Of a stretch of 64,000 nt of DNA, positions 2,912-27,482 are shown piece after piece. Source of the stretch: Elusimicrobiota bacterium. GTDB taxonomy: Bacteria; Elusimicrobiota; Elusimicrobia; UBA1565; UBA9628. Position numbers and translations under genes: made by a program. The notes below the pieces were generated by a model. That model saw only the letters and a program-made list of their open reading frames with translations. It was not told the origin of the DNA and searched no databases. Each line of letters begins with the position of its first letter. Within the stretch, counting starts at the first letter, position 1. The stretch is taken from the NCBI GenBank assembly GCA_038060535.1, contig JBBTHA010000021.1, positions 1,813 through 65,812 on the forward strand, written 5' to 3'.

Positions 2912-2965
2912 AGGCGAAGTATAGCGGAGTACGCGTAAACCCGCAAGGCTAAGACCTGGGGCTGG

Positions 2966-5149
2966 CTACAGCGCCTGCCGTCGTTTGCGGGCCGTTTCGA
3001 AAGTCGATCCGCTCTTGTCGGCGAGGTTGATGATTTCATCGTATAAAGGACGGGCCGCCTTGGAATCGTCTTCGAGCTCCAAGAGAAGCGCCAAGCGCAG
3101 CAGGCCCGAGAGGCGCACGGGGTCGCTTTTGGGCGATTGCGATTTCAGGCTCTCGTAGGCCGCCTTCGCCTCCGGGATCTTCTTTCGGCGTTCCTGCACG
3201 AGCCCCAGCCCGTACAGGGATTTCAGGCGTTCGGCGGGGCCCGTCGCCCGCGCGTAGGCCGCGGCCGCGCCGTCCAAATCTCCCCGTTCCTCGCGCAGAC
3301 GCGCGCTTTGCGCCCAGGCCGAGGAGGCTTTTTCGTGGCGCGCGAAGGCCTGGGCAAACGAGCTCCACGCTTTTTCCGCCTCTTGATTCTTTCCGGACTT
3401 GGTCAGGGCCAGGGCCAGGTTGTAGCGGGCTTCGGCGGCGGCGGCTCCGGTTCCCGCGACCAGAGCGTAGGCTTGGGCCGAGCCCGGAAAGTCGCCCGCG
3501 TCAAAGAGCATGCCGCCCAGGTTCATCGCGGCGTCTTGCGCGCGCGGGTGTTTGGGGTGCTCGCGCAGAAACCGCCGATAAGCCTCGGCGGCGTCCTGGG
3601 TGCGATTGAGCTGGCGCAGGCATTCGGCGTGATAGAATCGGGCGTCGGCGAGAGTCTCCGCCCGCGGCGAACTCTCGATGTGCCGGCGAAAAAGATTCTC
3701 GGCGCCGGCCCAATCTCCGCGCGTGTAGGCCTTGGCGGCCAAATCCCATCCAATCCTGGGCACGAGAGGATGCTCCGGGTTGCGCGCGGCCAGGGAAGCG
3801 AGCTCCGGATCGTTTTTATCGGCCTGCCAGAGGGCGGTCAGCAACAGCGCCTCGACTTCGCCGGTTTTGGCGCCCGGGGCCGCGGCGAGGTATTGCCTGT
3901 AGAGCGGGACGGCCTGCTTCCAGTTGTTACTGTTGTAATGGACCTGGGCCATCAGAAGCAGGGATTCGCGCTCGGCGTCGGGAGCCTGAGAGACGCGAGC
4001 CATGAGGCGGTAGTTTTCGAGAGCGAGATCGGATTTCCCCAGCGCGTTGTAGAGCTGGCCGAGCTGCAGGTGGGTGTGCGCGGCGAAGGCGGAGGTCGGG
4101 TGCCTGGCGCCGAGGTCTTTGAACGCCGCGATCGCCTGGTCGATGTCGTTGAGTTTTTTAAGGCACAACCCCCGTTGATACAGGGCCTGGGCGTTCATGG
4201 GGCTCTTGGGAAAGCGCTCGACGAAGCGTTCGTAGGCTTGAGCGGCCTGGGCGTAGTTGTGCGCCTGCATGAGCATGTGCGCGCCCGAGAGCGAGGCGGA
4301 CTCGCGCACGTCGCTGAGGTCCCACTTGGCGGCCTCCTCTTCGGCGCGCTCGAGCGCGTTCCGGGCGCGATCGTGTTTTCCCTGGCGGGCCCAATCCGAG
4401 GCGATCATCGCAAGCGCGTAGGCGCGCGCCGGCGAATTGAGCCCGGAGGCCGAGACGGCGCGGTAATGTTCGGCGGCCGCCGTCTTGCGGCCGAGGCGAT
4501 CCTCGGCCGCGGCCCGCCAGATCTGAGCCAGCGCCAGCCAACGGTCCGTCGCGCTCGCGGAGTCGACTTCCGGAATGACGGCGAGCGTTTCCTCGTCGAG
4601 TCCCAGCGCCGCCATCGCCGCGCCAAGAAGATGCAGGGATTTCGAGCGAACGGCGGGATCTGGGCTTTCGATCAGCGGCATGAGCGCGCCTTGGGCTTTG
4701 GCCGCCTCCCCCCGGCGCAGGTGCAGCGCGGCGACGGCGAGGTCGACCTCGGGGCTCGCGGGATGCGAGGGATATTGACGCTTGAAGTCAGTGGCCTGGG
4801 CCAAGGCGGCGTTCGCGTTTTTATTGGCGATCGCCCCGCGCAGATTTGCCAGCGCGTCGTCGGGAGACTGCGAAGGCGTCGGGGGAACGAAGGGCTCGTC
4901 AGCCTGGATGGACGCGGGGATCGACTCGATTCCCAGCTGGTTCTGAAGCAGGCGCCGCCCGTTGATGGCGGCCTCCGTGAGAGGATAGCGCTGAACCAGG
5001 ATTTCCAGGCTGTGCCGGGCGTCGGCGTACTCCGCCTCGTTGATCGCCGCCTCCGCCTTCCGTAACAGGCTTTGCGCGGCGATTTCGGCGTTGGGAGACG
5101 CCGCGCCGGCCTGGAGGCTGCAGAAGAGGACGATCGCGTTGATGATCAT
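2966..5149 (-). CDS. Large TPR-repeat protein with signal peptide, between tonB and exbB
   Basis: 727 aa. N-terminal signal peptide MIINAIVLFCSLQAGAAS. Many Ala/Leu-rich TPR-like repeats (AxxxYxxAxxxF pattern). Stop codon is TAG. Confidence 0.7.
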   Translation of the reverse strand: MIINAIVLFCSLQAGAASPNAEIAAQSLLRKAEAAINEAEYADARHSLEILVQRYPLTEAAINGRRLLQNQLGIESIPASIQADEPFVPPTPSQSPDDALANLRGAIANKNANAALAQATDFKRQYPSHPASPEVDLAVAALHLRRGEAAKAQGALMPLIESPDPAVRSKSLHLLGAAMAALGLDEETLAVIPEVDSASATDRWLALAQIWRAAAEDRLGRKTAAAEHYRAVSASGLNSPARAYALAMIASDWARQGKHDRARNALERAEEEAAKWDLSDVRESASLSGAHMLMQAHNYAQAAQAYERFVERFPKSPMNAQALYQRGLCLKKLNDIDQAIAAFKDLGARHPTSAFAAHTHLQLGQLYNALGKSDLALENYRLMARVSQAPDAERESLLLMAQVHYNSNNWKQAVPLYRQYLAAAPGAKTGEVEALLLTALWQADKNDPELASLAARNPEHPLVPRIGWDLAAKAYTRGDWAGAENLFRRHIESSPRAETLADARFYHAECLRQLNRTQDAAEAYRRFLREHPKHPRAQDAAMNLGGMLFDAGDFPGSAQAYALVAGTGAAAAEARYNLALALTKSGKNQEAEKAWSSFAQAFARHEKASSAWAQSARLREERGDLDGAAAAYARATGPAERLKSLYGLGLVQERRKKIPEAKAAYESLKSQSPKSDPVRLSGLLRLALLLELEDDSKAARPLYDEIINLADKSGSTFETARKRRQAL

Positions 5150-5152
5150 GGC

Positions 5153-6634
5153 TTAAGAGGTGAAGCGGAAAGTGACTCGTCCCCAATCGTCCTGAGCTCC
5201 GGCGTTGGCCGGCATCGGCTGGAATCTCCATTTGCGTAGAGCGTCGAGAGCCAGGCGGTCGATCTCCGGGAAGCCGGAGGTTTTCTGTATCACGGCGCTC
5301 GGGTCGACGCCGCCGTTGGGCAGGACCTTGAAACGCACGGTCACCGTCAAATCGAGGTTGCGCGTGGCGATCCAATCAGGGCTTGTTGGGGAGACTCGCG
5401 CAAGAATGCGCCGGTCGCCTACGGGACCGTCGACCGCCCAAGAAACCCCCCCCTCCTCCAGGCCCGCCGCGCCGCCGCGGGACCCGGTTTTGAGGGGACT
5501 GTCGCCGCCGTCGCCGGCGGCGTTTCCGGGATTGACGGACTCTGCCAAGGCCGCGGCCGCGCCCGCTTTGCGGGCGGCGGACTGGCGGGCGAGGGCGGCT
5601 GCGGCGTCGCCCTGACCGGAGGAGGGTGACGTCGCGCGAGTCGATGATCCCGAAGAGGCCTTCCCCGCCGACGGGGACGCCGACGCGGCGCCCGCCGAAG
5701 CCCTTTCGGCGGCGGACAGGGCGGAGAGTTCCTGGGTGAGTTCCGCGCGTTTTCGTTCCTTGACGGCCTTGGCTTCGGCGGCCAGGCGCAGGCGTTCGGC
5801 TTCTTGCGCGGCGCGCCGCTCGGCCTCTTCACGCGCGGCTTGCGCCTGAGCTTTCTTGATGACCTCCTGCCGTTCATTTTCCGCGCGGATCTGCTCCTGG
5901 CGGCGTTGTTCCGCGATCCTCGCTTCGGCGGCCAGGCGCTCGCGTTCGGCTTTCTGCGCGGCGCGCCGCTCGGCCTCTTCGCGCGCGGCCTCGATTTTGG
6001 CCTTCTGGAGCGCGTCCTGACGTTCTTTTTTGGCGAGGGCCTGCACCTGGCGGCGTTGCGCCTCGATTTTATTCGCCTCGGCGGCCAGGCGCTCGTGTTC
6101 GGCTTTCTGCGCGGCGCGCCGCTCGGCCTCTTCGCGCGCGGCCTCGGCTTTGGCTTTTTGGAGCGCGTCCTGACGTTCTTGTTCGGCGAGGGCTTGCTCC
6201 TGGCGGCGCTGCGCCTCGATTTTCTTCGCCTCGGCGGCGCGCTCAAGGGCGAGGACGTCGACGGCGGGCCGAGCCGGGGGTTTGGCCATGGGCGGGAGTC
6301 GGGGGCGCTTGAGAGAGGCTCCCGGCTTGTTGATTTTCGAGAGCGCCGCGGCGGGTTTGGGATTTGGCGCGGGTTTTGGCGGCGCGTCGATCGCGCCGAT
6401 TTTGATCGCGTCCCGTTCGGCGCGCGCGGAGGGGCCCGGCGACGCCTCGAGCGCCGGCGGCAGCGGGATTTCCGCGACGAACTCGACGGGAACGATTTTA
6501 TCGGCTAAACGCTCCCCGCTTCCCCAGCGGATGGCGGGGTTGAGGGTGAGCAGGCCCGCGTAGGCGATCAGCGAGGCGAGGTAAAACGGCGCCTCGTGGA
6601 ACCAGTCATATTCGACTTGCTCGCGCCAGGACAT
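5153..6634 (-). CDS. tonB: TonB-family energy transducer with an expanded coiled-coil repeat linker
   Basis: N-terminal TM anchor. Pro-rich segment (PPKPAPNPKP). Three tandem ~50-aa Glu/Arg/Ala-rich repeats (KIEAQRRQEQALA..ERQDALQKAKAEAAREEAERRAAQKAE). C-terminal TonB domain (VTVRFKVLPNGGVDPSAVIQKTSGFPEIDRLALDALRKWRFQP). Confidence 0.7.
   Translation of the reverse strand: MSWREQVEYDWFHEAPFYLASLIAYAGLLTLNPAIRWGSGERLADKIVPVEFVAEIPLPPALEASPGPSARAERDAIKIGAIDAPPKPAPNPKPAAALSKINKPGASLKRPRLPPMAKPPARPAVDVLALERAAEAKKIEAQRRQEQALAEQERQDALQKAKAEAAREEAERRAAQKAEHERLAAEANKIEAQRRQVQALAKKERQDALQKAKIEAAREEAERRAAQKAERERLAAEARIAEQRRQEQIRAENERQEVIKKAQAQAAREEAERRAAQEAERLRLAAEAKAVKERKRAELTQELSALSAAERASAGAASASPSAGKASSGSSTRATSPSSGQGDAAAALARQSAARKAGAAAALAESVNPGNAAGDGGDSPLKTGSRGGAAGLEEGGVSWAVDGPVGDRRILARVSPTSPDWIATRNLDLTVTVRFKVLPNGGVDPSAVIQKTSGFPEIDRLALDALRKWRFQPMPANAGAQDDWGRVTFRFTS
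5781..6240. repeat. 3 x ~150-bp in-frame tandem direct repeats inside the tonB-like gene
   Basis: Units start with gcggccaggcgc[a/t]cg[c/t]gttcggcttt[c]tgcgcggcgcgccgctcggcctcttc.cgcgcggc at about 5781, 5931 and 6081. They encode the reiterated coiled-coil segment. Confidence 0.7.
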
Positions 6635-13969: not shown

Positions 13970-14857
13970 TTACCAGCGCCCGCCGAGGCTGAAGCGGTGC
14001 GCGCGCCCGAGCTCGCCGGAAGCGAGCACGGCGTAGTCGAGACTCCAGGTCGCGCCGCGAAAGCCCAGGCCCATCGCCAAACCACGCGCAGCGTCGAAGC
14101 CCGAGCCGCCGGCGGCCGTTTGCGTCGCATAGCCCGCGCGCAGATAGAGATGCGAGACCGCCTGGTACTCGCCTCCCAAGGCCGCCTGCGTCCCCGCCCC
14201 GCGCGGGCCGTTGATGAGCTCGACAGCGGCCGAATGTCCGCCCTCCGACGTGTACGCCGCGCCCAGGGCCAGCCTCAGGGGCAAATCGTCGCGCCTATCG
14301 GCGAATTTAAGACCCGCGCCCAGATTGCGCAGCGCCGCACCCAGGCTGAGCCGCTCGAAGCGGCGCTGGGCGCCGAGGTCGAGGGCGACGCCCTGCGCCT
14401 CTGAAGACCCGATATGGCTGCGGATGTATTTGACGCCGACGCCGACGCGGGCGAACTCGAGGGCGCGCCCGTAGCCCAGGCTGAGCGCCGCGTCCGAGGC
14501 GTTGTAGCCTGGGGCTGGACGTCCGAGAGCGTCGCGCCCCTCGATTCGGGCTTGGCTTAAGTAGGTCACCCCCCCCGAGAACGTTCCCCGGCTCGTGGGC
14601 TGGGCGTAAGTCAGGGAGTCGAGGCGGGTGCTCTCGAAAAGTTCGGCGTGGCCCGCGGTAAATTCGCGTTTTTCAAGCGCCGCCAGCCCAGCGGCATTCC
14701 AGTGCAGGGCGTTGGCGTCGTCGGCCAGCGCCGTATAGGCTCCACCCAGTCCCAAGGCCCTCGCGCCCGCGCCGATATTCAAAAACGCCGCGCCCTCGGC
14801 CGCCCGGCAGTCCGGGCGGCCAAGAAAGAGCAACGCGGCGAGCAGGAGCGTTCTCAT
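13970..14857 (-). CDS. Outer-membrane beta-barrel protein, PorV/PorQ-like (family assignment tentative)
   Basis: Signal peptide. N-terminal Gly-rich motif AAFLNIGAGARALGLGGAYTA, remembered from PorV/UPF0164-type FadL-like barrels. Alternating amphipathic strands and C-terminal aromatic residue. Starts 1 nt after the stop of the ORF carrying a T9SS-type C-terminal domain. Confidence 0.5.
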   Translation of the reverse strand: MRTLLLAALLFLGRPDCRAAEGAAFLNIGAGARALGLGGAYTALADDANALHWNAAGLAALEKREFTAGHAELFESTRLDSLTYAQPTSRGTFSGGVTYLSQARIEGRDALGRPAPGYNASDAALSLGYGRALEFARVGVGVKYIRSHIGSSEAQGVALDLGAQRRFERLSLGAALRNLGAGLKFADRRDDLPLRLALGAAYTSEGGHSAAVELINGPRGAGTQAALGGEYQAVSHLYLRAGYATQTAAGGSGFDAARGLAMGLGFRGATWSLDYAVLASGELGRAHRFSLGGRW

Positions 14858-14858
14858 G

Positions 14859-15767
14859 TTATTTCACGACCCCGACCTTGCCCGTCTTGCGGATATCCGC
14901 GCTTCCGGCTTTTTTGGCCGTGAGCGTGTACGTATAGACTCCCGAGGCCACGCCCGAGACGTCCCAGGAGTGGTCGTATGTGTTTTGATTGCCTTTGCCG
15001 TTTCCGTCGTCGAGCAGGCTGAAGCGGAAATCCGAGGAGGAATGGACCTTGCGGCCGGAGGCGTCGTAGATTCGGACTTCGACCGAGTCGGCCCTGCCGG
15101 GCTGGAGGCGCAAGGTCACCGCCGCGCCGCCTCGCGAGGGACTGGGGAAAGCGTAGGCGTCGCGAAGCGAGAACTCGTCGAGCGCCGCCGCCGTGCCGAT
15201 GCCTCCGCCGGGGCCCATCACCTGATAGACCGAGAAGTGCTGGGTCTGGGCGCTAAGCGTTTGATTCTGCTTATCGACTGCCGAGGCCAGCGCCTGCCAG
15301 TCTTGGAGCGAGGCGTTCCAGTAATGGATCTTGAGATCGTCCTCCTTCAGGCCCCGCGCGGCGCTCAGGTGGACGTCATAGGGCAGCGTCAGCGTCACCA
15401 GCGTATTGAATACCGTCCCCTCGGGGCCGAAGCGGACTTCCGGGCCGGCGGCCGTCAACCGCCTGTCGCGGCGCTTGGCTTCCTTGGAGGCCGTGTCCTG
15501 ATTCTCATCGGGCTCATCGACCGTGATCTCGAGGTCCGTGCCGAGGGCGCCCTGGGGCACCCAGACGCCCGCGCCGTCGTCGCGCTCGACGGAGGCGCCG
15601 TCGGCGGCCTCGACGAAGCGGCGCGCGCTTTGCAGAGGCTCGACGGCGACGCTGTCGCCGCCGACCGAGAGGGCGGCCACGCCCGAACCGGCCGCCAAGG
15701 GCAGGGTGTAGCGCACGACGCGGTCGCGTCCTGAATCGGTGATCCAAAGCGAGCCATCCGGGCCCAT
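14859..15767 (-). CDS. NHL-repeat segment plus T9SS-type C-terminal sorting domain; probably the 3' portion of the upstream giant gene
   Basis: No signal peptide. Begins MGPDGSLWITDSGRDRVVRY (NHL-like). Ends VEVRIYDASGRKV...SWDVSGVASGVYTYTLTAKKAGSADIRKTGKVGVVK, which matches the Por_Secre_tail pattern. Same reading frame as 15792..21449 and separated from it only by TAG. Confidence 0.6.
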   Translation of the reverse strand: MGPDGSLWITDSGRDRVVRYTLPLAAGSGVAALSVGGDSVAVEPLQSARRFVEAADGASVERDDGAGVWVPQGALGTDLEITVDEPDENQDTASKEAKRRDRRLTAAGPEVRFGPEGTVFNTLVTLTLPYDVHLSAARGLKEDDLKIHYWNASLQDWQALASAVDKQNQTLSAQTQHFSVYQVMGPGGGIGTAAALDEFSLRDAYAFPSPSRGGAAVTLRLQPGRADSVEVRIYDASGRKVHSSSDFRFSLLDDGNGKGNQNTYDHSWDVSGVASGVYTYTLTAKKAGSADIRKTGKVGVVK

Positions 15768-15791
15768 GGCCGCGTCGTTAGGCGCGGTTAG

Positions 15792-18700
15792 CTAGCGGAC
15801 GGCGAGCTTGTCGGCGCGGGAAAGCCCCGCCGAGCTGCCGAAAGCGAGCAGGCCTTTGCCCTGCGCGTCGAACTTCTGCACGCGGTTGCGGTTGGTCTCG
15901 ACTGTGTACACGGACCCCAGGCGGTCGGCGGCCACGCCCCGCATCCGCGAGAGTTCCCCGATCGCCGAATCCGCGCCGCCGATGGACCGAATCAAAGTTC
16001 CCGCGCGGCTGAACAGGAACAGGCGCTGGCGCTCGTGATCCGACACCCAAAGGCCTTCCGGGGCCAAGGCGATGCCTCGTATATCGTCATGGGAGGAGAG
16101 CACTCCCGTGCCGAAGCGGCGCAGAAAGGTCCCCGAGGAGTCGTACACCTGGACGCGGTGTTTGCCCGAGTCGGCGGCGTAGACGTCGCCGATTAAGTCG
16201 ACGGCCACATCCCGCGGCGAGCACAGACCCTTGAGCTCGCGCAGGACTTGCGCGCCGTCGGGGGAAAAGACCACGATACGGTCGTTGCCGATGTCGGCGA
16301 CATAGACGTTGCCGGCGCCGTCGAGCGCCAAGCCCTGGGGTTTTTTCAGGCGCCGGCCGTGCCCCTCGACGGTCGCGGCCACGCCCCCCGCGGGTGTGAG
16401 CAGAAGCAAGGCGTCGTCGACGGCGACCCAAATCCTTCCATCCGGGCGCACCGCGATTCCCGTGGGGTTTTTAAGTCGTTTGACGATGGCATTCGCGTTT
16501 CGGCGGCCGATGGCGAAGGACATGACGGGCCGGCCGACGTAGACTCCCGCCGTCGTCGCGGCCGCGTTGCCAAAGGCGTCGACGGCGCGCAGCCGCAGCG
16601 TGCGGTGGCCCGAGAGCGCCGACGTGTTCCAGGCCGCGATCTGCCCCGTGCGCTGGCCCGAGCCGGACGCGATCGTCGTAAATCCGCTTGTGGCCGTGGC
16701 GCCGGGAGCCGACTCGAGCGTCCAGCTGACCGCGCTATCGTCTGACACCGCGCCGCGCACGTTGACGACGCCCCCCACCGCGCGCTCCACGCCGAGGGCC
16801 GAGGAAGCGGGAAAATCCAGTCGCACCAACGGCGGGACATGATCGGAGGAGGGCCCTGCGACGGATATCTCGAAGCGCCGAGGATCCTCGCGGTTGAGCG
16901 CGCGGTCCACGCTGAAAAAAACCAAGGAATGCGCGCCCGCACCGAGGCTGAACGTCGAGACGAAGACCGTCTCGGTCGCGCCGTCGATGGAAAAGCGGGT
17001 CTCAAGCGCGCCCGTACCCGCGTCTGAGGCGGCAAAGCCCAAGGAGTCGGTCGAGACCAGAACCAGGCTTGTCGCCGAGACGCCCAGGCCGTTGACTTGA
17101 AGCGTCGTGACGGGAGGCAGGCTGTCGATGAAGAACACGGCGCTTGCCGTAGACGTGTTGCCGGCCGCATCCGACACCGAGGCCGTAAGGGTGTGGGCCC
17201 CTTGGTCGAGCGGGGCCGCGGGCGTGAAGGCCGCCTCGGAGGCGGAGATGGCCGCCAGGGAGGTTTTATCCGCGCCGTCAAGGCTCAGGCGCACTGAGGT
17301 GGTGGCGATTCCCACCCCTAGATCGGCGTACGTCGCCAGCAGCGTCGGCACGGCGGTCGTGACCGTGCTGCCGTCAACGGGCGATAAAGCCAGGCTGGGC
17401 GGGACGTGATCTACGGGCGGCGCGGCGACGGCGATTGACACGGTCTTGGCCGGCTCGGCGTTGCCGACGTTATCGATACTCTGGAAGACCAAGGAATGCG
17501 TGCCTATCGAGAGTGAAAACGTCGAGACAGCTACAGTGGTCGCCGTGCTTCCATCGAGGGCGTACAGGGTCTGGGCAACGCCCGATCCGGAGTCGGATTT
17601 TAAGAAGGAGAATTCGGTCGTCATGCTCACGACAAGCGTCGCCGATGAAGAAATCACATTGTCGACCAGGAGCTTGGTGACAGGGGGCGTCGAGTCTAGG
17701 ATGAGATTGCGCGTCTGAGGCGCTTCGGCGTTGCCGATCAGATCGACGCTGTGGAACGTGACGCTGTGCGGCCCCTCTCCAGTCAGTACAATCGAAGACA
17801 CAAGGGGTATGGACGATCCGTTATCGATCGAGACGAACGTTTGCGCAACGCCAACTCCCAGACCGTCGCCAACGGTGGTTTGGTCGTCCGTGGCCGATAA
17901 AGAAACGTTTGTCTGAGAACTCACATAGAGCGGATCGTTGCCGTAGCTCGGTGTTTCGGCGATAAGGGACGTCCTCGGCGCAAGAACATCGAGACTGACC
18001 TGAAAAGCTTGCGTCTCCAGAGCGGAACTGTTTCCGGCCCAATCCGAGGCGCGCACGACAAGCTTCCAGCTCCCCTGGGATAGTGACGAGGCGGGAATCG
18101 AGGTTCCGTTGGCCGCGGCTATGGATTGCCCCCCATCCAGCGATATGAAATAGGCCGTGGCGCCCGGAGCCAAGTCCGCATTGTCATGGACCGTAAAGCT
18201 CACCCCGATCGATGCCGCCCCGGAAAATGTCTCCCCTCCATTCGGGGATGTTATCGCGATCGCGGGGGCGACGTCGTCTATCAGGTCCAGGGACCCCGTG
18301 CTGAGCGCGGCCGCATATCGCGAGTCCCCATCAAAACGGGCTCGCAGCGGCCATCTGAGCTTGAGCGGTTGGGGAAGCGCGAATTGGAAAGCGACCGTCG
18401 CGCCCGCCAGGAGCGATGAGGCCAGCGGTATAGCCGTGCCGGAGGCGTCGAGCGTTTCAAGAACGACGGTCTTGGGCTCCTGCGTTTGCCGCTGGAGCGT
18501 TTGGGCCTGCTCATCGGTCAGGGTCAAGACAAGATGAACTGTATCCGTGGGACGAGCGGAAGCAAAGGGCGCTTGAAGGTGAGTGGCCCGTGTTGTGAGC
18601 GTAAAAGGGGTATTGGCGGAGCTGGGTAAGTAGAAGAAATTGTCGCCGGCATAGTTCATCGTGAGGTTGTAATTGCCGGCGGCCGATGAAAGGAAAATCG

Positions 18701-21449
18701 AAGCTGCGGCCATGCCGGTTGAACCCGTTCTCGCGTTCTGGGTGAGGCCGGCGAGTTGGAAGCTGACCGGTTGGCGCAAGGCCGGGCCGTTATCCGTGGT
18801 CAAACGCGCGGCCAAAGCCGCCGTGTCCAGGAACGCCACGCTTGAGACGCCCACATATGAGAACCGGGTTTCCAAAGGGACGGCCGAGATCACGGTATTG
18901 GTCGGGGTGATCGTTTGCAAGGCGTTGGGGAAGTAGACCAGCGCCTGGTTGCTGACGACCGTGCCCGGGGGCGAGGTCGACTTGAGGCGTGTCTCAATGA
19001 CGAAGCTCCCACCGTGATGAGGCCCCGCGTTGCCGGTCAGGACGGTGACGGTTCTCGTTTTGAGGTCGTAGGACCAGGGGAAATTGGCGGGGGTCGTCGA
19101 GATGGGAACATCATCGACGAAAACGTGGGTGTTCATGTCGCGCACCGTCAGAATAGAATCATCCAAGTTGGGGTCCAGGACATCCTTGATAAAGACGCCC
19201 AACGCCGTGCCGTCGCCCACGTTCTCGAACTCAAGGGTATAGGTCATGAGTTGGCCCGGGGTCACCGAGCCCTCTGGACCGTACAGGTGGTTGGGGTCGC
19301 CGGGCACGAGGAATTGGGTCGGCGGATAGAAAATCGAGGGCGGCCAATCGGCGGGAGCCCCCGCACCCGGACCGCCGGGAACGTTGGGCGGCAAGGTGCA
19401 GCTCGCCACGCCGGAAACGAGACAGGGCGGCTGCGGGGTCGATGGAGGATGAGGAGGAGGCCTTGAGCCGCCGGGACCCGCCCCGGGGCCGGGCGGCTTC
19501 TCCCCGCCGGGAGGGACCATAACGAAGCTGCTCTGCGAGCAATTGTCCGCCACGCTGCACGCCTGGGCCCAGTACCAAACGTTTTCCTCAAGGGTGAAGC
19601 CGAGCGAGGCGCCTCCCGGACCGGCTTGGGCGACGGGGGACGCGTAGTCCGTGTCGAGAAAGACCGAGAGGCTTTTCATCGGCGCGTTGGACGGGGGCGG
19701 CGTGGCGCTGATATTGACCCAGCCGTTTTGCGTGTCGTCGGTGTCGTTGAGCACCTTGCCCGCGCCGTCGATGACCCATAATGTCGGCGGGGTTGCGTCG
19801 ATTGAGAAATTCACCAGTGTAGCCCTTGCCCTCAATGATGCGGCAGTTGATTGAAGGCTCCGCTGGTCGGGGAGGAATGTGTCGTACGTGCCATTCTCAT
19901 CCTTGATCTGCGCCAAGAAGGCGTAGAAGCCATCCTGTAAACCGAGAAGCTCGGTGTCGATGAGGAGCTCCAGTCCGTCTAAAGGGGTCGCGTCCTCGCT
20001 AACAATGGTCCAGTTGCTCAGGTCCTGAAGGCGCGCGTCGATAAAGGCATCGCTATCGCCGCCAGGTAAAGCCTCGTTCAGGATCAAGAGCCTGGCCCCA
20101 CTCGTGTTCTCTGGAGTCGCCCCGAGGTTCAGCTCGCTGGCGAGAAACGGCTGGATTCGAACCTTGGCCTTCTTGCCGATGCTGTCCGAGGACGTTGGGG
20201 TACTGAAATTACCATCGAGCTTCTTGTCGACCCCCGACACTTTCGCACGAGAATAGACGATCCCATGTGTCTCGCTGATTTTCCTAAACGCCTCCTTCTT
20301 GACCGTGGGGCTTCTCGCCATGTACGCGTCCCAGAACTCCTTGAAGTTTGACGGCCTCGCCTGCGAGACGGCTGCCCAAAGGGTCGCGAAGTCAGAGGAT
20401 ATGCCATCATCATCGGCTGGGTCCGCGATATCCCAGAGCACGCTGGCGACAGCGCCCTCCACGCTTTCTCCGGAGTGACTCAGGCCGGAGGCCGCCGGAT
20501 CGAAGCTTCCTTTCCAGAACGTGTTCGCCTCGAGCGTCATGGTGGTGCCTGGATTGCCGATGAACTGAAGATTACTCGCTACGGCGTCCATCATGAAGTT
20601 CGACCAGCCTTCGAGCCAGGCGAAGATTGGCTCTGAAATGGTTATGAAGGTGTGCGGCTGCGCGAAAGAGCTCGTCGGGAGGTGATTCCCATAGATCGAG
20701 AACATGACCGCGTGCGCGTACTCGTGATAAATCGCTTCACGCATGAACATCAACGGCTTGCCGAAACGGAGCTCTCCGTCGACGCCGAAGAATCCCAGGA
20801 AGTTGTTGAACTCGAAGCCGGTTGCCATCGTATCAGGATCGATCTCTGCGTCAAGTTGCACCCGGCTGACATAGGCCGGAATTCGGTCATGAAGCCATTT
20901 GTCCATGACGTAGACTTCTTTCAGGACGTTTGCCCCGCCGACCTCAAGGTCGCTCGCCGTCTGAGGGATCGTGATGTCATTCGAGTACGTGCCGCTGATT
21001 CCCGGGATCACGTCGGTGTTGTAGATGATAGTGGAGGCAGAGCCCTGAGGCGTCGCCAAGACCAGGCTCGTCACCAAGGGAACCTCAAAAACGAGGTCGA
21101 AGGAGGTGAAATCACCGTTGTCAATAGTCCCCTGTATCCTTCCCGCAGAGTCGGTTGTAAGTTCTCCGAGGAGGATGTCCCCGAACAACTGATGATGGTA
21201 GACGCGGACGGTCACGCCGGGAGGAAATGTCTTGATCGAGGGCGCGTTGTCCAGCGACTGCGACAAGAAAGAAAGGCCGGACACGTTGCCTTTGTTGTGG
21301 ACCTTGACGACGCTGTTGATCGTCACCTGGCCGGCGGCAGCGCTCAGAGGGCAGCAGATGAGCAGGGCGCACAGGCCAGAGCTTCTTATGGCTCCACCCC
21401 ATCGTGCCATCGCGCGTTCGACCACGTTGATCATTCTCAATGCTGCCAC
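15792..21449 (-). CDS. Giant secreted surface protein: HExxH metalloprotease-like N-domain, Pro-rich linker, Ig-like/DUF11-like repeats, NHL beta-propeller
   Basis: 1885 aa. Signal-peptide-like MARWGGAIRSSGLCALLICCPLSAAAG. REAIYHEYAHAV zinc-binding motif. PPGPGAGPGGSRPPPHPPSTPQPP linker. Repeated beta-sandwich-type segments. C-terminal NHL repeats (VYVADIGNDRIVVF, VYAADSGKHRVQVYD, VYTVETNRNRVQKFD). Start codon ambiguous: GTG 21449, or ATG at M6 or M14. Confidence 0.8.
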   Translation of the reverse strand: MAALRMINVVERAMARWGGAIRSSGLCALLICCPLSAAAGQVTINSVVKVHNKGNVSGLSFLSQSLDNAPSIKTFPPGVTVRVYHHQLFGDILLGELTTDSAGRIQGTIDNGDFTSFDLVFEVPLVTSLVLATPQGSASTIIYNTDVIPGISGTYSNDITIPQTASDLEVGGANVLKEVYVMDKWLHDRIPAYVSRVQLDAEIDPDTMATGFEFNNFLGFFGVDGELRFGKPLMFMREAIYHEYAHAVMFSIYGNHLPTSSFAQPHTFITISEPIFAWLEGWSNFMMDAVASNLQFIGNPGTTMTLEANTFWKGSFDPAASGLSHSGESVEGAVASVLWDIADPADDDGISSDFATLWAAVSQARPSNFKEFWDAYMARSPTVKKEAFRKISETHGIVYSRAKVSGVDKKLDGNFSTPTSSDSIGKKAKVRIQPFLASELNLGATPENTSGARLLILNEALPGGDSDAFIDARLQDLSNWTIVSEDATPLDGLELLIDTELLGLQDGFYAFLAQIKDENGTYDTFLPDQRSLQSTAASLRARATLVNFSIDATPPTLWVIDGAGKVLNDTDDTQNGWVNISATPPPSNAPMKSLSVFLDTDYASPVAQAGPGGASLGFTLEENVWYWAQACSVADNCSQSSFVMVPPGGEKPPGPGAGPGGSRPPPHPPSTPQPPCLVSGVASCTLPPNVPGGPGAGAPADWPPSIFYPPTQFLVPGDPNHLYGPEGSVTPGQLMTYTLEFENVGDGTALGVFIKDVLDPNLDDSILTVRDMNTHVFVDDVPISTTPANFPWSYDLKTRTVTVLTGNAGPHHGGSFVIETRLKSTSPPGTVVSNQALVYFPNALQTITPTNTVISAVPLETRFSYVGVSSVAFLDTAALAARLTTDNGPALRQPVSFQLAGLTQNARTGSTGMAAASIFLSSAAGNYNLTMNYAGDNFFYLPSSANTPFTLTTRATHLQAPFASARPTDTVHLVLTLTDEQAQTLQRQTQEPKTVVLETLDASGTAIPLASSLLAGATVAFQFALPQPLKLRWPLRARFDGDSRYAAALSTGSLDLIDDVAPAIAITSPNGGETFSGAASIGVSFTVHDNADLAPGATAYFISLDGGQSIAAANGTSIPASSLSQGSWKLVVRASDWAGNSSALETQAFQVSLDVLAPRTSLIAETPSYGNDPLYVSSQTNVSLSATDDQTTVGDGLGVGVAQTFVSIDNGSSIPLVSSIVLTGEGPHSVTFHSVDLIGNAEAPQTRNLILDSTPPVTKLLVDNVISSSATLVVSMTTEFSFLKSDSGSGVAQTLYALDGSTATTVAVSTFSLSIGTHSLVFQSIDNVGNAEPAKTVSIAVAAPPVDHVPPSLALSPVDGSTVTTAVPTLLATYADLGVGIATTSVRLSLDGADKTSLAAISASEAAFTPAAPLDQGAHTLTASVSDAAGNTSTASAVFFIDSLPPVTTLQVNGLGVSATSLVLVSTDSLGFAASDAGTGALETRFSIDGATETVFVSTFSLGAGAHSLVFFSVDRALNREDPRRFEISVAGPSSDHVPPLVRLDFPASSALGVERAVGGVVNVRGAVSDDSAVSWTLESAPGATATSGFTTIASGSGQRTGQIAAWNTSALSGHRTLRLRAVDAFGNAAATTAGVYVGRPVMSFAIGRRNANAIVKRLKNPTGIAVRPDGRIWVAVDDALLLLTPAGGVAATVEGHGRRLKKPQGLALDGAGNVYVADIGNDRIVVFSPDGAQVLRELKGLCSPRDVAVDLIGDVYAADSGKHRVQVYDSSGTFLRRFGTGVLSSHDDIRGIALAPEGLWVSDHERQRLFLFSRAGTLIRSIGGADSAIGELSRMRGVAADRLGSVYTVETNRNRVQKFDAQGKGLLAFGSSAGLSRADKLAVR

Positions 21450-22090
21450 CGGTGTTTGAGCCGCTTCCAGAGGGACCCAAAGTCCCAGTCTTCGACTCTT
21501 CCGACATCCTCCCGAACCTTCACATAGAGCGAAGGGGGCATGAACGCGAGTGCGTCCTCCACGATCTTTAGGCTCTGTCCGGTTCGCACAAACTCCTGCT
21601 GGCGGCGGATCGCGTCGGCATCGGCTCCTTGAAGGTCCGGGATGTTCTTGGCGACCTCTTCTTGGAGACCCTGAAGATTGGCTGAGTCGTCTCGAAGGAG
21701 GCTGATCTTTCCAGAAAGGTGGTAGAAGCCCGGCCTTGTCAGCTTAAAGCGAATCGCCCATTCTTTCCGTTCGGTTTGCAGACCCTTCCAATGCGCGACG
21801 ATGGAACCGGGGGCGCTTTGCCGATCCAACTCGATGTCCGAATGAACTATCTCGCTGTCCGCCGGGAGCGAATAACGTAGTTCCAGCGGAACGGGGGCCT
21901 TGCCGGGAAACTCCAGAGTCAGAGTCAAGGTCATCTCTGAACCCAATCGAGGTGCCGGGGCCGAAAGCTTCACTCGGCCCCGCGGAGGCGGCGAGGAGAT
22001 CATGTCTCCAAGGCTAGGCGACCACAACCCTGCCAGCAGTAGGGCCGCAAGGACGGGTCTGGCGACGGCTAGTAGCTGGCGATTTTCCAT
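21437..22090 (-). CDS. Secreted hypothetical protein
   Basis: ATG start. Signal peptide MENRQLLAVARPVLAALLLAGLWSPSLG. No recognised domain. Visibly lower G+C than the flanking regions. Confidence 0.55.
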   Translation of the reverse strand: MENRQLLAVARPVLAALLLAGLWSPSLGDMISSPPPRGRVKLSAPAPRLGSEMTLTLTLEFPGKAPVPLELRYSLPADSEIVHSDIELDRQSAPGSIVAHWKGLQTERKEWAIRFKLTRPGFYHLSGKISLLRDDSANLQGLQEEVAKNIPDLQGADADAIRRQQEFVRTGQSLKIVEDALAFMPPSLYVKVREDVGRVEDWDFGSLWKRLKHRWQH

Positions 22091-22869
22091 ACTTCTCTGT
22101 CCCGGACCATCTTGAAGAAGAAGCTCCGAGGCTGTGCGCTGGCTCTAGATTCCGCTGCGCTGACAATCGCGGTTGCCTTTGCCTCTGCGCCAGAGACCTG
22201 TATCTCGACGATTTGCGGCTCCATCGATGTAATCTTGCTGGTAGGAAGCTGACGTTCGATTTCCTTCATCTGCTTCGTTGGGAACTGAGACGAGAGAGTG
22301 CTCTTTAGCGCCGGGAGGTCCCGCGCGACGATTGCTCGCATGAAGTCGTCGACCGTCTGCCGAATGGCGCGGCGCGATGGGGTATCCTGTCTATGCCGCG
22401 CAATGTCTTTCCTGCGCTCGACCAATTCACGTTCCCCCATTTCCGTTGAACGACTACTTCCTCTGACTTGACCCTCGATGAATCGCTCGGCCCCCTCGTA
22501 CTTTCCGCTCTCCAAGAGCGCGAAAAATATGCCTTGCCGAGCCTTTCGGACGAGCGCCTTATCCGAAGACCCCTCCAGTACCTTCTTAAATTCCTGAACA
22601 GCCTCCTCGTTCCGCTGCTGTCTAGCGAGAAGGCCACCAAGTTGCATACAGGCGTCCGCCTCATCTCCGGTTGACGGCATTCCGGGAAGGGCTTTCCGGT
22701 AGGCGTCTATAGCCTTCGAGATCTCATTCCGTCCAACAAGCTCTCGCGCATGTCGGAACGCCCCTTCCCGCTGCGATTCTCCGCCAAAACCTGTGCTGGC
22801 ACAGACAGCCATGGCAAGCGCACAGGAGACAGGCAGTCGGATACGCCGACTCCTAATGTCTGTGTTCAT
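22069..22869 (-). CDS. Secreted hypothetical protein with TPR-like N-terminal half
   Basis: Start at the internal ATG (MNTDIRSRRIRLPVSCALAMAVCAST, signal-peptide-like). The ORF-track frame extends to 22956, where ATGATGA overlaps the upstream stop. Confidence 0.5.
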   Translation of the reverse strand: MNTDIRSRRIRLPVSCALAMAVCASTGFGGESQREGAFRHARELVGRNEISKAIDAYRKALPGMPSTGDEADACMQLGGLLARQQRNEEAVQEFKKVLEGSSDKALVRKARQGIFFALLESGKYEGAERFIEGQVRGSSRSTEMGERELVERRKDIARHRQDTPSRRAIRQTVDDFMRAIVARDLPALKSTLSSQFPTKQMKEIERQLPTSKITSMEPQIVEIQVSGAEAKATAIVSAAESRASAQPRSFFFKMVRDREVWKIASY

Positions 22870-22952
22870 CTGCACCCCTTCTCCCTCACCGCCTTCGAAG
22901 GATTCGATAACAATAACTCGGCGCGTTTTAACAGCTAATCCATCTGACAGCA

Positions 22953-25900
22953 TCATGGAGTCCCCCCGACGGGATAGTGCGCGAAGACCTGATCAGCCCA
23001 AGCTTTGCTCAGAAGTTCCACGTGCCCTCCCGTAAGAAATTCGTGCGGCTGCGGTCCGCCAGGGGCCATGAGCCGGAAGCGAGCTTGGTAGTTCAGCTTG
23101 ACGGCGCTTCGCGGCGGTATCTGCGCAATATCCCAACGCACGAACGGGGTCGGGGAGTAAAGCTTGGTATTGCGCCAGGAGGCGACATTGTAGACGACGT
23201 AGGAGCCCGAAGCCGAGACAAAATCCGCCCAATCCGTTAAGCCCACGACGACCGACACCCCGGTTGCCGCCGCGAAGCCGTCGTTGCGGATGGTAATGAG
23301 GTGCGATTCCACGGCGCCCGGAAACGCGACATGGGGATGGGTGGTCAATACGCTGAGCAGAGGCTGGATCGGCGCGCCGACGTCGAGCCGCTCCAGCGTG
23401 AGGAGCAGCGATCTCGGCGCCTTGGCGACCAGGATCCCCTCGAAGCGGCTCCGAATCGGCTGATCGTAGAGGCCGCTAAGACGCGCGACCTGGCTGTAGT
23501 TGGCGACCGCATAAGCCCAGCCGACGCCCGTGCCAAAGGTCGAGGAATATGTGGGTAGGAAGAAACCCTCGCCGTTGTAAGGGTTGCCGGGGCTGTTTAC
23601 GGTGACCAAGGTGAAGGTGTTCTCAAGAGGACCGACTTCATAGCCGCTTGTCTGACCAGTCAGCGATGACTGTCGAAGGTTCAGAGCGGTCCCAGGATAT
23701 TGGGTCGACTGCGGGGCCGGAGCGCTGCCGCTGAAGTGGAGGCGGCTGGCACCGAACTGATTGCCGATCTGCGTCGCGCCGCAAGACAGCGACATGCGGT
23801 CGAAGTTGCCGCTGCCGGGCACGGACTCGGTCAGGACGCCTTCCAGTACGCCGCGGATGCCGCCTGCGAGGACTCCTTTGAGGACCATCCGCCGAGGCGC
23901 CTGCGTCAAGAACGCGGCGCCCTGCCAGAGGCCCGACAGGAAGGCCCCGTCAGCGAGACCCAAGGTCCATGCGCCTCGGAAGAAGCCGTTGCCCGCCAAT
24001 GAGCCGCTCTGAAGCGTGACCAACCGCATCTGCGCCTGGCTGAAGGTTCCCGGTGTGACGCCGGTGGACGTTGCTCCGGAGAAGTCGAGTGCCTGAGCCG
24101 AAAGCGTTTCGGTCAGCGACTGGCTGGCCGATAATGTCTCCTGCAATTGGGAAAATGTCACCGTTGGAGGGCTGTTGGTGTTGCTGAAACCGACGAGTTG
24201 ATTGTTATCTAAAATAGTTCCAGCATTGCCGTTTCCAGTTCCCGTGCCACCGGCGACGAGGAGCGCGTATGATGCTGTCTTGGCGCCATAGGATAAGGCG
24301 ATCCTCCCTCCGCCGCCTCCCGAGCCACCCACACTGGTGCCTCCCCCGCCATTTGCCCTGAGTACTCCCGTTCCCGCAAGAGCGGCTGCATTGATGTTGA
24401 TAGTGCCGCCGCCGCCCCCTCCTCCGCCGGTTCCGTAATAGGGCTCAGGAGCGCCGGCCACGCCATTGGCTGAAATCAAACCGTCGAGCGTGAGTGTACC
24501 GCCGACCTGCAGGAGCACCGCGCCTCCGCCGGCTCCGCCGGCGATTCCCCCACCAGCGGTGCTGCCGCCGCCCTGAGACCCCAATTCGGTAGGGAAAAGT
24601 GCGCTGTCGTATGTCGCTTCGCCCGAACTGCCTTCGGATCCCGCTCCCCCAGCACCCCCGTGCCCGCCGCCGCCCCCGGAACGATATCCCTTACCGCCGC
24701 CGCCTGGCCCGGCGCCGACCTGATTCCCACCATACCGTGTATATCCTTTGCCATCCACCGAGATGGCCGAGCCCGACTGCACGATCATATTTCCGCTCAC
24801 GTTGAGATTTAGAATGGAAGATTGTGTCAGGCCGTTGGGTCGGTGAGTTATTTGAGCGCCGGGATCCATTCTGATCGATGTGAAATTTAAAGGCAATGAG
24901 CTCTCCTGCTCAAACAATCCTCCGTTGCGGACGATAAGATTGACATTCGACAGGGAGCCCTCTGACCACGTTAAGATCCCACCCGTACGAATTTCCAGGG
25001 GATTGTTTCCGAGGGTCAGGTCGCCGAACGCCGCCGTCATTGTGCCCTGGATGACAAGTGATCCCGCAATGAGACTTGGCGCCTTTAATGTCGCCGAACC
25101 GATCACGACGAGGGAATCGACGGATGTTGAACTCCCTGTAAAGATGAGTGTCGCGTTGGTCAGCGAGACCGCGGCCAAAGTCAGCGGCGAGTCAGTCACT
25201 GGAGTGTGCGCCTGCGGGATGCGAGTCGAACTTCCGACGGTCAGGCTGCAATGAGTCGCTCCGGGGTTCTTCTCCACGATCGTGCCGGCTCCGCCGTTGA
25301 TTCCTGTGGATCCGCCGCCATTCCCAGAGAGTGCCGCAATGCTCAGGCTCGCCGCATGGCTTTGCGTGACATTCAGCGCGATTCGGCCCCCTCCTCCTCC
25401 CGAGCCACCCACACTGGTGCCTCCCCCGCCATTTGCCCTGAGTACTCCCGTTCCCGCAAGAGCGGCTGCATTGATGTTGATAGTGCCGCCGCCGCCCCCT
25501 CCTCCGCCGGTTCCGTAATAGGGCTCAGGAGCGCCGGCCACGCCATTGGCTGAAATCAAACCGTCGAGCGTGAGTGTACCGCCGACCTGCAGGAGCACCG
25601 CGCCTCCGCCGGCTCCGCCGGCGATTCCCCCACCAGCGGTGCTGCCGCCGCCCTGAGACCCCAATTCGGTGGGGAAAAGTGCGCTGTCGTATGACGTTTC
25701 GCCCGAACTGCCTTCGGATCCCGCCCCCCCAGCGCCCCCGTGCCCGCCGCCGCCCCCGGAACGATATCCCTTACCGCCGCCGCCTGGTCCGGCGCCCACC
25801 TGATTTCCGCTTGATCCCGTATAGCCAAGCCCATCAGCTATTATGGTCGCTCCAGCGGGGAGATTGAAATCGTCCGTCACGTTGAGATTAAGGACAGACG

Positions 25901-27482
25901 AGCGACTCGTTGAATTGATTCCATGTCTCATGGTCCCGCCGGGATGAACCATGACGGAAGTAAAGGTTAAGGGAGTCGTGTTGATTTGAACGAATGTGCC
26001 GCCGCTGTTCACCATCAATGGACCATTGCTTGAGGTCGCTGCCATTTGAAATACCGCGCCAGGCATAACGATCGCGTTAGCGTTCCACGAAATCGAAGCC
26101 GCCTTGAGTGAGGCCGTTCCGACAATCACCAAATTATCGAGCGATACAACGCTGCCGGAATCGAAATTAATGGCGCTGTTGTTGAGCGTCATGAGGCCGA
26201 ATGAGAGATTCGTTCCATGAATCGGGGTCATCGCTTGCGGCGCAACGGATAAACCTGCTGATAGTCCGCCGAGAACTAAATCGAAGTTTGGCTTAGTTCC
26301 GCTGCGAGTCGCGGCGATCCCGGCGCCGCCGGCGGCAGAGCCGCCCGCGCCAGAGCCTCTGTTTGCCTGTACGGAAAGATTCGAGGTATTTTGATCGGTG
26401 ACTCTGATGCTAACGATGCCCCCGCCCCCCCCGCCGCCCCCCACGCCCCCCGAAATCGCTCCCGGCCCTCCATTTGCATGGATGGATCCCGTTCCGCTCA
26501 GGCTACCCGCTGTAATTTTGACCGTGCCGCCCGCGCCGCCGCCGCCGCCGCTGTCACCGTCAAAACCGCCGGCTGGATGACCTGGGAGACCGTCAGCGGT
26601 AATTGTTCCGTTGAGTACCAGCGTTCCTCCGATCGAAATCAACACGGTTCCGCCGCCATACCCACCGAGACCATCGACGCAGCCTTGTGACCGTCCTCCC
26701 CCTCCGCCCGAACCTAAATCCGTGGGATCGATGTAATTGTCATACGACGCGCCGCCATTGATCGGGTTGCTGGGTTGGCCGGTGTTCGCGTTTTCTCCAT
26801 TGCCTCCCATTCCGGCATGCCCGCCGCCCCCGCCGCCCAACGGGAGAACGCCGGGTCCCGCGCCAGTAGCGCCGGTTCCACCCCCGCCTGGTCCATAACC
26901 CGACGTGTGGGTCGAACAGGGCATTCCGCCTGCGTAGCCCAAGCCATTGACCACGATCGTTGCGCCCGCCTGGAGATTGAAGTCGCCGATCACGTTTAAA
27001 TTGACAAGGGAAGAGAGGGTCGATGAATTCGGAGTGTGAGTGATCACGCCGCCGGGCATCAGATTCATCTCGCCCAGGCTTATTTGTTGGGTTGTATCCT
27101 GCTGGAGTTTCGCTCCCGAGTATACAGTGACCGCGCCGTTTGTTGTTTGGGCGGCCGATAGGCGCAGCGTAGGAGAGAAATTCCCAGCGGCATCACCGAG
27201 CGTCAAAGTTGCGAATGCGATGGATGAACCCCCACCAGCGGTGATGGTTGCGTTATTGTCGATGACGACATTGTCGGCAGAGGAGGGGACCCGGGCGGCA
27301 GACCAGTTGCCCGCAACGAACCAATTGCCATCTACGCTGCCCGTCCAGGTCAGAGTGGATGCGCTCACGTTTAGGGCGATCGTCGAGAGAGATAAAACGA
27401 CCGCAACAACGGCCGCCACAAAAAGACGGGGAGACCTGAGTAAATTTCTTTGCGACGAAGATGGTGTGTCTATTGCAACCAC
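22953..27482 (-). CDS. Giant Gly-rich beta-helix-like surface protein with C-terminal DUF11-like domain
   Basis: 1509 aa. N-terminal hydrophobic anchor or signal. Reiterated NxxxxGxxxxxG beta-helix-like rungs (TWTGSVDGNWFVAGNWS...). Long poly-Gly tracts. A ~150-aa segment is duplicated almost exactly. C-terminal segment ITIRNDGFAAATGVSVVVGLTD resembles a DUF11 conserved repeat domain. Confidence 0.75.
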   Translation of the reverse strand: MVAIDTPSSSQRNLLRSPRLFVAAVVAVVLSLSTIALNVSASTLTWTGSVDGNWFVAGNWSAARVPSSADNVVIDNNATITAGGGSSIAFATLTLGDAAGNFSPTLRLSAAQTTNGAVTVYSGAKLQQDTTQQISLGEMNLMPGGVITHTPNSSTLSSLVNLNVIGDFNLQAGATIVVNGLGYAGGMPCSTHTSGYGPGGGGTGATGAGPGVLPLGGGGGGHAGMGGNGENANTGQPSNPINGGASYDNYIDPTDLGSGGGGGRSQGCVDGLGGYGGGTVLISIGGTLVLNGTITADGLPGHPAGGFDGDSGGGGGAGGTVKITAGSLSGTGSIHANGGPGAISGGVGGGGGGGGIVSIRVTDQNTSNLSVQANRGSGAGGSAAGGAGIAATRSGTKPNFDLVLGGLSAGLSVAPQAMTPIHGTNLSFGLMTLNNSAINFDSGSVVSLDNLVIVGTASLKAASISWNANAIVMPGAVFQMAATSSNGPLMVNSGGTFVQINTTPLTFTSVMVHPGGTMRHGINSTSRSSVLNLNVTDDFNLPAGATIIADGLGYTGSSGNQVGAGPGGGGKGYRSGGGGGHGGAGGAGSEGSSGETSYDSALFPTELGSQGGGSTAGGGIAGGAGGGAVLLQVGGTLTLDGLISANGVAGAPEPYYGTGGGGGGGGTININAAALAGTGVLRANGGGGTSVGGSGGGGGRIALNVTQSHAASLSIAALSGNGGGSTGINGGAGTIVEKNPGATHCSLTVGSSTRIPQAHTPVTDSPLTLAAVSLTNATLIFTGSSTSVDSLVVIGSATLKAPSLIAGSLVIQGTMTAAFGDLTLGNNPLEIRTGGILTWSEGSLSNVNLIVRNGGLFEQESSLPLNFTSIRMDPGAQITHRPNGLTQSSILNLNVSGNMIVQSGSAISVDGKGYTRYGGNQVGAGPGGGGKGYRSGGGGGHGGAGGAGSEGSSGEATYDSALFPTELGSQGGGSTAGGGIAGGAGGGAVLLQVGGTLTLDGLISANGVAGAPEPYYGTGGGGGGGGTININAAALAGTGVLRANGGGGTSVGGSGGGGGRIALSYGAKTASYALLVAGGTGTGNGNAGTILDNNQLVGFSNTNSPPTVTFSQLQETLSASQSLTETLSAQALDFSGATSTGVTPGTFSQAQMRLVTLQSGSLAGNGFFRGAWTLGLADGAFLSGLWQGAAFLTQAPRRMVLKGVLAGGIRGVLEGVLTESVPGSGNFDRMSLSCGATQIGNQFGASRLHFSGSAPAPQSTQYPGTALNLRQSSLTGQTSGYEVGPLENTFTLVTVNSPGNPYNGEGFFLPTYSSTFGTGVGWAYAVANYSQVARLSGLYDQPIRSRFEGILVAKAPRSLLLTLERLDVGAPIQPLLSVLTTHPHVAFPGAVESHLITIRNDGFAAATGVSVVVGLTDWADFVSASGSYVVYNVASWRNTKLYSPTPFVRWDIAQIPPRSAVKLNYQARFRLMAPGGPQPHEFLTGGHVELLSKAWADQVFAHYPVGGTP
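24319..24725. repeat. Intragenic near-identical direct repeat, copy 1 (~407 bp)
   Basis: Near-identical to 25399..25805 with a few mismatches seen by eye. It encodes VGAGPGGGGKGYRSGGGGGHGGAGGAGSEGSSGE...GGGGGRIAL twice. Confidence 0.8.
25399..25805. repeat. Intragenic near-identical direct repeat, copy 2 (~407 bp)
   Basis: See copy 1. The spacing between copies is 1080 bp. Confidence 0.8.

Follow-up and report, generated by a model that had tools for sequence, protein, structure and literature searches.

A lineage-specific in-frame TAG codon interrupts a giant surface-protein gene of a groundwater Elusimicrobiota bacterium and probably reflects a recent nonsense mutation

In programmed recoding, as exemplified by the phage Qbeta A1 protein and by pyrrolysine UAG decoding, the stop codon is kept across relatives, and a defined context or dedicated machinery is often present. 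Bacterial in-frame stops that are under purifying selection have been widely reported (Belinky et al. 2021, PMC7918605), and Salmonella pseudogenes with in-frame stops are translated at a low level, mainly via UAG and most often where C is the next base (Feng et al. 2022, PMC9122581). The subject here is a single in-frame TAG on the minus strand of a 64,000-nucleotide stretch of DNA (the window) from an Elusimicrobiota bacterium (GenBank assembly GCA_038060535.1, contig JBBTHA010000021.1, positions 1,813 to 65,812 of the forward strand). It separates the gene of a giant surface protein from a downstream open reading frame (ORF) of 302 amino acids. The locus resembles these so-called pseudo-pseudogenes (Feng et al. 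2022; Belinky et al. 2021) in having one in-frame stop, with UAG-C context, within an otherwise intact conserved gene; it differs in belonging to an uncultured Elusimicrobiota metagenome-assembled genome (MAG) known from DNA alone, in which all carriers of the stop are about 100% identical. Like programmed readthrough, the arrangement has an in-frame stop that parts a core protein from a functional C-terminal extension. In contrast to programmed readthrough, the stop occurs at none of the 20 homologous loci, and no stimulatory structure was found with it.

The severed extension has described counterparts of its own. The motif HF/S is the self-cleavage site of PIDD/Nup98/GAIN-type domains. In Bacteroidota, the cargo proteins of the type IX secretion system (T9SS) share one PorV, and in Porphyromonas gingivalis PorQ reportedly retains PorZ at the surface. 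Self-processing has been predicted for the ZU5 domains of large bacterial surface proteins (Zhang et al. 2012, PMC3482391), and cleavage of the F-S bond of HFS has been shown experimentally in bacterial MAIN domains (Brogan & Rudner 2026, bioRxiv 10.64898/2026.05.12.724683). MAIN proteins comprise a signal peptide, adhesion or enzymatic domains, the MAIN domain and a surface anchor; the anchors stressed are sortase motifs, cell-wall anchoring and S-layer homology domains (Brogan & Rudner 2026).

The data support the reading of the two ORFs as one ancestral gene, with the 302-residue ORF being the severed C-terminus of the giant protein, as the initial annotation had proposed. The long minus-strand ORF ends ...GSSAGLSRADKLAVR-TAG (...ADKLAVR-TAG), the stop lying at 15794-15792. 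The 24 nucleotides that follow (15791-15768) continue in the same frame and translate as LTAPNDAA; from the ATG at 15767, the frame continues as MGPDGSLWITDSGRDRVVRY... until a TAA at 14861-14859. Across the TAG, the fused frame reads ...LAVR-X-LTAPNDAAMGPDGSLWITDSGR, where X is the residue at the TAG. Direct reading of the sequence confirmed this geometry as first described, except for the upstream start, which had been placed at GTG 21449. It is likely ATG 21434, the start called in public assemblies and by NCBI, which gives a product of 1,880 residues. NCBI annotates the two halves separately, as an 'Ig-like domain-containing protein' (MEK7388431.1) and a 'hypothetical protein' (MEK7388430.1); neither clusters with any other protein at 90% identity or above.

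A search with the fused protein, together with a scan of GTDB species genomes, identified a family that is present, as several paralogues per genome, in Elusimicrobiota MAGs. Uninterrupted single proteins of this family span 100% of the fused query at 50-65% identity, end to end and gap-free. The collinearity of both ORFs with these proteins, together with a predicted beta-propeller that spans the TAG, is what argues for one gene rather than two. The initial annotation had looked to orthologues for a sense codon at this position, and one is found: at the 20 homologous loci spanning the site, the codon is TAC in 10, TAT in 7, TTC in 2 and TGG in 1. The alignments of these loci contain no in-frame stop, in the TAG column (0/20) or elsewhere. 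TAG is one substitution away from TAC, TAT or TGG, and the stop is unique to this lineage.

Alignment also indicates that the Met at 15767 is an ordinary internal residue, as its column is occupied variously by A, L, I, V or M in the uninterrupted homologues (P0004 and P0005 have Met). The two sides of the stop are similar in character. At columns that are otherwise invariant, the window departs from its relatives at 4 of 56 upstream positions and at 4 of 75 downstream ones, conservatively in every case, and the GC content of third codon positions (GC3) is 0.84 on both sides.

The position of the stop within the protein fold points in the same direction. The upstream ORF contains NHL repeats (PF01436, 72.2 bits against a cut-off of 20), as well as Big_13/OmpL47-type Ig-like domains and DUF7619/DUF11 (Pfam, NCBIfam). 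Past the stop, residues 4-29 of the 302-residue ORF give matches to all blades of the six-bladed Pizza6 designer propellers, and the suggestion that an NHL blade continues beyond the TAG is borne out by these two matches. An AlphaFold2 (AF2) model of the 558-residue fused segment surrounding the stop has a mean predicted local distance difference test score (pLDDT) of 84.9 and shows five four-stranded blades ahead of residue 248, the position of the TAG. Blade 6 is built from residues 252-277 together with an N-terminal strand (residues 4-10), and the predicted six-bladed ring is closed. In this model the TAG falls exactly between blades 5 and 6 of one NHL propeller. With the stop at this point and blade 6 missing, the propeller is therefore predicted to be unable to close.

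The features expected of an exported protein are likewise divided between the halves. The N-terminus of the upstream ORF has a basic stretch and then a hydrophobic one ending AAA/GQ, which resembles a signal peptide. The 302-residue ORF has no signal peptide on direct reading, as had been noted, and holds the C-terminal domain (CTD), the last ~100 residues of the fused protein.

Taken together, these observations make a lineage-specific, recent loss-of-function nonsense allele, in effect a pseudogene in a multi-paralogue family, the probable explanation; of the options in the initial annotation, a recent nonsense mutation is the one that fits everything. An ancestral gene of about 2,190 codons would have been hit by a one-base nonsense substitution. 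Its product would have contained, in order: a signal peptide; an HExxH-containing region; Ig-like/OmpL47 domains; a six-bladed NHL propeller; a ZU5-fold HFS self-cleavage domain; and a T9SS-like CTD. The substitution would have converted a Tyr codon (TAC or TAT) to TAG at the first residue of blade 6, a change from Trp (TGG) being less likely. RF1-type termination at the TAG would then yield a 1,880-residue, periplasm-directed product without blade 6, the HFS module or the CTD. In intact homologues, the CTD would direct the protein to the outer membrane, or hold it there, via a dedicated PorV/PorQ-like barrel encoded next door. The truncated protein would presumably either fail to reach the cell surface or fail to be retained there. 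Adventitious low-level readthrough of UAG-C would give traces of the full-length protein at most.

The mutation appears to be recent because the downstream part shows no decay, although this also fits selection acting through leakage. The mutation may thus be recent, or the gene may be kept alive by low-level leakage.

The alternative that survives best is a functionally exploited leaky termination, of the pseudo-pseudogene or regulatory readthrough kind, in which a small fraction of ribosomes would insert Tyr, Gln or Trp at the stop. Full-length exportable protein would be made, selection would keep the downstream part, and the stop would strongly down-regulate a costly or dangerous surface protein. 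Three observations count against a simple nonsense allele and favour such leakage: UAG-C is the stop context with the most frequent readthrough in Salmonella pseudogenes; the 310 codons past the stop are intact and conserved like the upstream ones, as selection via readthrough would also predict; and the TAG allele is seemingly fixed in every sample, so that it may be tolerated or even advantageous. The wide reporting of in-frame stops under purifying selection in bacteria also speaks for leakage. Against it, stop conservation at the site, the hallmark of programmed readthrough, is found at 0/20 homologous loci. RNA structure around and after the stop is not significant (z = -1.72; 12 of 200 shuffles fold equally well), the TAG-C context is common to four genuine TAG terminators in the window, and recency explains the lack of decay equally well. 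The programmed readthrough raised in the initial annotation thus lacks its expected signatures, the stop being neither conserved nor structured and its TAG-C context ordinary. Exploited leakage is considered unlikely on this balance, and meaningful readthrough probably does not occur.

A more specific form of this proposal would have the UAG-C stop kept as a translational throttle. Rare near-cognate readthrough would restore the aromatic residue and supply a small regulated pool of full-length protein, which would be exported, held on the PorV-like barrel dedicated to it and released through HFS self-cleavage, while the bulk product would be truncated. Only a slim chance is given to this scheme; if true, the throttle would amount to a naturally occurring dosage switch, with two isoforms, for a giant surface protein of an uncultured phylum.

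Next, the halves could be two separate functional genes, the 302-residue ORF being translated alone from ATG 15767 by reinitiation or from an internal start. NCBI annotates two coding sequences, and the ATG lies only 24 nucleotides past the stop. The resulting product, however, would start in mid-blade and would lack a signal peptide, yet would carry an export/anchoring domain. Its start codon falls in the variable column described above, and neither a promoter-like site nor a Shine-Dalgarno-like sequence was found ahead of ATG 15767. The gene is split in no relative, and this explanation is regarded as very improbable. One apparent parallel, in MAG GCA_964623465.1 (L002 9682-9691 and L019 4171-4180; 2,363 and 413 residues), was rejected as an annotation artefact: the split is a run of 10 N in the scaffold.

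Special decoding of TAG as an amino acid, whether through reassignment, an amber suppressor tRNA or pyrrolysine, is scarcely credible. Nothing positive favours it, although the tRNA search covered the window only; in the window no tRNA with a CUA anticodon was found, the sole tRNA being tRNA-His. Stop codon use among the 36 ORFs of the window is even, with TAG, TAA and TGA ending 12 each, and this one-third share of TAG is presumably unusually high for a bacterium. The genes ended by TAG include Pfam-validated full-length genes for acetate kinase, thymidine phosphorylase, LysR, SBF and transketolase. No other gene within the 64-kb window is interrupted by an in-frame TAG, and the site itself corresponds to an ordinary structural Tyr, not a catalytic one. 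TAG is a normal stop here and is very probably not specially decoded.

The initial annotation had cited the TPR gene ending at 2966-2968 as evidence that TAG is a genuine stop elsewhere, and this holds: the ORF after it is a MotA/ExbB gene in its own right and has its own start. The shared frame of these two ORFs had made 2966-2968 a candidate second in-frame TAG and a hint of genome-wide readthrough, which was rejected on the same ground. The region itself (2276-6634, minus strand) is a tightly packed run of a TonB_C-domain protein, a 727-residue TPR protein and the MotA/ExbB protein. In the window as a whole, which has 64% GC, the tetranucleotide CTAG is under-represented, a Markov model predicting about 55 occurrences against the 29 observed.

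A sequencing or assembly error, with TAC or TAT as the true codon, is the remaining alternative, and it is suggested by low coverage (contig names cov_5 and cov_6) and by the several paralogues per genome in related MAGs, which could confuse assembly. The exact 302-residue ORF occurs on eight public contigs, six of which were retrieved (L003-L008): two from the ENA assemblies of Hain_H41 (replicates R2 and R3) and four from Logan assemblies (ERR3858137, ERR3858138, SRR32696707 and SRR32696686). Each is 99.9-100% identical to the window and contains GTCCGCTAGCTAACCGCGCC, with the same TAG and the same flanks. The window and these contigs represent different assemblers and at least four sequencing runs, and De Bruijn assemblers cannot make k-mers that are missing from the reads. 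Nor is there any discontinuity of composition or identity at the site. A TAC or TAT version is absent from the six contigs, was not seen on contigs carrying the neighbouring PorV-like gene, and gave 0 hits in a pattern scan of JGI metagenomes. In this groundwater Elusimicrobiota population, no allele other than TAG has been seen. With the identical TAG present in six further contigs, an error, which the initial annotation had listed among its options, is effectively excluded. Error, code change and an independent downstream gene jointly account for only a small part of the probability.

Two further mechanisms were considered. Ribosome hopping or frameshifting at the stop is contradicted by alignments that are collinear in the zero frame on both sides, and the only CGC landing codon in the 24 nucleotides leads into TAA. 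A recombination or cassette junction at the TAG, prompted by the contig end of the homologue P0010, is not supported: GC3 is even, identity to relatives changes smoothly and there are no flanking repeats. That 3.6-kb contig (L001 1-10) begins one nucleotide before the Tyr codon homologous to the TAG, and the N-termini of the partial homologues P0009 and P0011 start within 3 residues of each other. Contig ends probably cluster at conserved stretches through assembly breaks at k-mers common to paralogues.

The coordinates of the interrupted gene, its predicted modules and its neighbour are collected in Table 1.

Table 1. Features of the interrupted gene and the adjoining barrel gene (positions are those of the window)
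Feature	Position	Strand	Basis
In-frame TAG replacing a conserved aromatic (Tyr) codon; creates the palindrome GCTAGC	15792..15794	-	Sequence; homologue codons; contigs L003-L008
Upstream ORF, 1,880 residues: signal-peptide-like N-terminus, HExxH+E motif, DUF7619/DUF11, Big_13/OmpL47-type Ig-like domains, NHL blades 1-5	15795..21434	-	Translation; Pfam; NCBIfam; NCBI annotation
NHL beta-propeller blades 1-5 and N-terminal 'velcro' strand predicted to complete blade 6	15795..16535	-	PF01436; AF2 model
In-frame 24 nucleotides from TAG to ATG, LTAPNDAA, the start of NHL blade 6 (homologues LTQPIDAA)	15768..15791	-	Sequence; alignments
Orphaned 302-residue ORF without signal peptide: rest of blade 6 (residues 1-30), low-confidence linker, ZU5-fold domain (~45-186), Gly-rich linker, C-terminal beta-sandwich sorting domain (~203-302)	14859..15767	-	Profiles; blade match; Foldseek
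H-F-S triplet at the turn between the last two ZU5-fold strands, putative autoproteolysis site HF/S (cut F-S)	15231..15239	-	Conservation; analogy with MAIN domains
C-terminal sorting/anchoring domain, T9SS type A CTD-like	14862..15161	-	Near-cut-off profiles; model with seven to eight strands, pLDDT about 85-95
PorV/PorQ-family outer-membrane beta-barrel gene, starting 1 nucleotide past the stop of the 302-residue ORF	13970..14857	-	NF033709; synteny

The ZU5 assignment combines profile and structural evidence. The 302-residue ORF matches PF00791 at 21.1 bits against a cut-off of 21. An AF2 model of this ORF alone (pLDDT 76.5) was compared by Foldseek and matched the ZU5 domains of ankyrin and UNC5b (E values of 3e-7 to 1e-4; template modelling scores of about 0.6 normalised to the isolated ZU5 domain). 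The domain ends T-x-H-F-S-x-Y-Q, in which T175, H177, F178, S179 and Y181 are invariant. In the model, HFS (residues 177-179) forms the turn between strands 170-175 and 180-186. Among related loci (L001-L055), 53 have the motif covered; HFS is present in 49 of these, including every locus with a CTD and extending down to 30% identity, and three outgroup loci have HFT.

The sorting domain of the initial annotation stands as to location, at the extreme C-terminus, while its assignment to the T9SS type is a near-threshold sequence call. The CTD scores slightly under both curated cut-offs (PF18962, 25.9 against 27; TIGR04183, 22.8 against 23), and precomputed PF18962 matches exist in four homologues (P0009, P0010, P0012 and P0013). 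Foldseek with the CTD part of the model returned generic Ig-like sandwiches only and no T9SS CTD. The gene at 13970..14857 belongs to the PorV/PorQ family (NF033709, 158.1 bits against a cut-off of 90), and it falls below the equivalog cut-offs for PorV (75 against 250) and PorQ (96 against 220). The scan of window proteins revealed no component of the T9SS core machinery (SprA/Sov, PorK/L/M/N, PorU).

At 47 of 47 related ZU5-CTD loci (L001, L002 and L009-L054), the cargo gene is immediately followed by a PorV/PorQ-family gene of the same orientation. The gap between cargo and barrel genes is mostly about 0-15 nucleotides and at most 111, and there are several such pairs per genome. As all 47 loci have an adjoining barrel gene, each cargo paralogue has its own barrel.

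The cassette can be set beside two known architectures. With Bacteroidota T9SS type A CTD cargo, it shares a C-terminal beta-sandwich resembling Por_Secre_tail and a PorV/PorQ barrel that scores above its curated cut-off. It differs in its occurrence in Elusimicrobiota, in a CTD just under the cut-offs and in an own PorV-like gene for each cargo; no T9SS core gene was found within the window. With MAIN and other bacterial ZU5 modules, the Elusimicrobiota family shares the domain order, the ZU5 fold and the conserved HFS. In contrast to MAIN proteins, the anchor here would be the CTD and PorV-like barrel of a diderm, and cleavage is putative. The CTD may dock the cargo on its dedicated barrel, and an HFS nick could allow shedding. 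The HFS motif itself points to nicking of the cargo and to its possible release from the CTD anchor. The nonsense mutation would remove the HFS module, anchoring by the CTD and shedding.

The upstream half carries one further motif of interest. At 20595-20726 (minus strand), the translation contains HEYAH...AWLEGWSNF, the second motif lying 30 residues on; this HExxH+E arrangement is reminiscent of gluzincin or M1-type metallopeptidases, and no Pfam or NCBIfam model matches the region.

In itself the finding matters little, as it adds one more gene broken by a nonsense mutation, and a nonsense-disrupted gene split by annotation is of a well-known kind. Its practical value lies in a corrected annotation, in which the 302-residue 'protein' is not an independent gene. 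As the sole allele in several groundwater samples, and with a UAG-C stop (the leakiest context in enterobacteria), the locus is also a clean natural test case for pseudo-pseudogene readthrough outside model organisms. The more notable by-product is the strictly conserved Elusimicrobiota cassette, in which a large cargo, a ZU5-fold HFS domain, a CTD and a PorV/PorQ-like barrel would extend the recently described MAIN/GAIN release architecture to diderm anchoring.

Five ORFs of 302 to 1,509 residues in the window match no Pfam or NCBIfam model at the thresholds used: 22953-27482 (minus), 27578-28486 (minus), 29225-31456 (plus), 35545-37182 (minus) and 53022-55460 (plus). The giant-protein operon is immediately preceded by two of them, next to a TPR-like protein at 22069-22956 (weak sub-threshold Pfam hits) and a 165-residue protein. 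The 1,509-residue ORF (22953..27482) contains a 300-nucleotide direct repeat, at 24298-24597 and 25378-25677, whose copies are 98% identical and spaced 1,080 nucleotides apart. Each ENA contig shows seven differences from the window, six of them clustered at 25551-25626, inside this repeat; this pattern suggests either repeat-mediated variation or assembly ambiguity.

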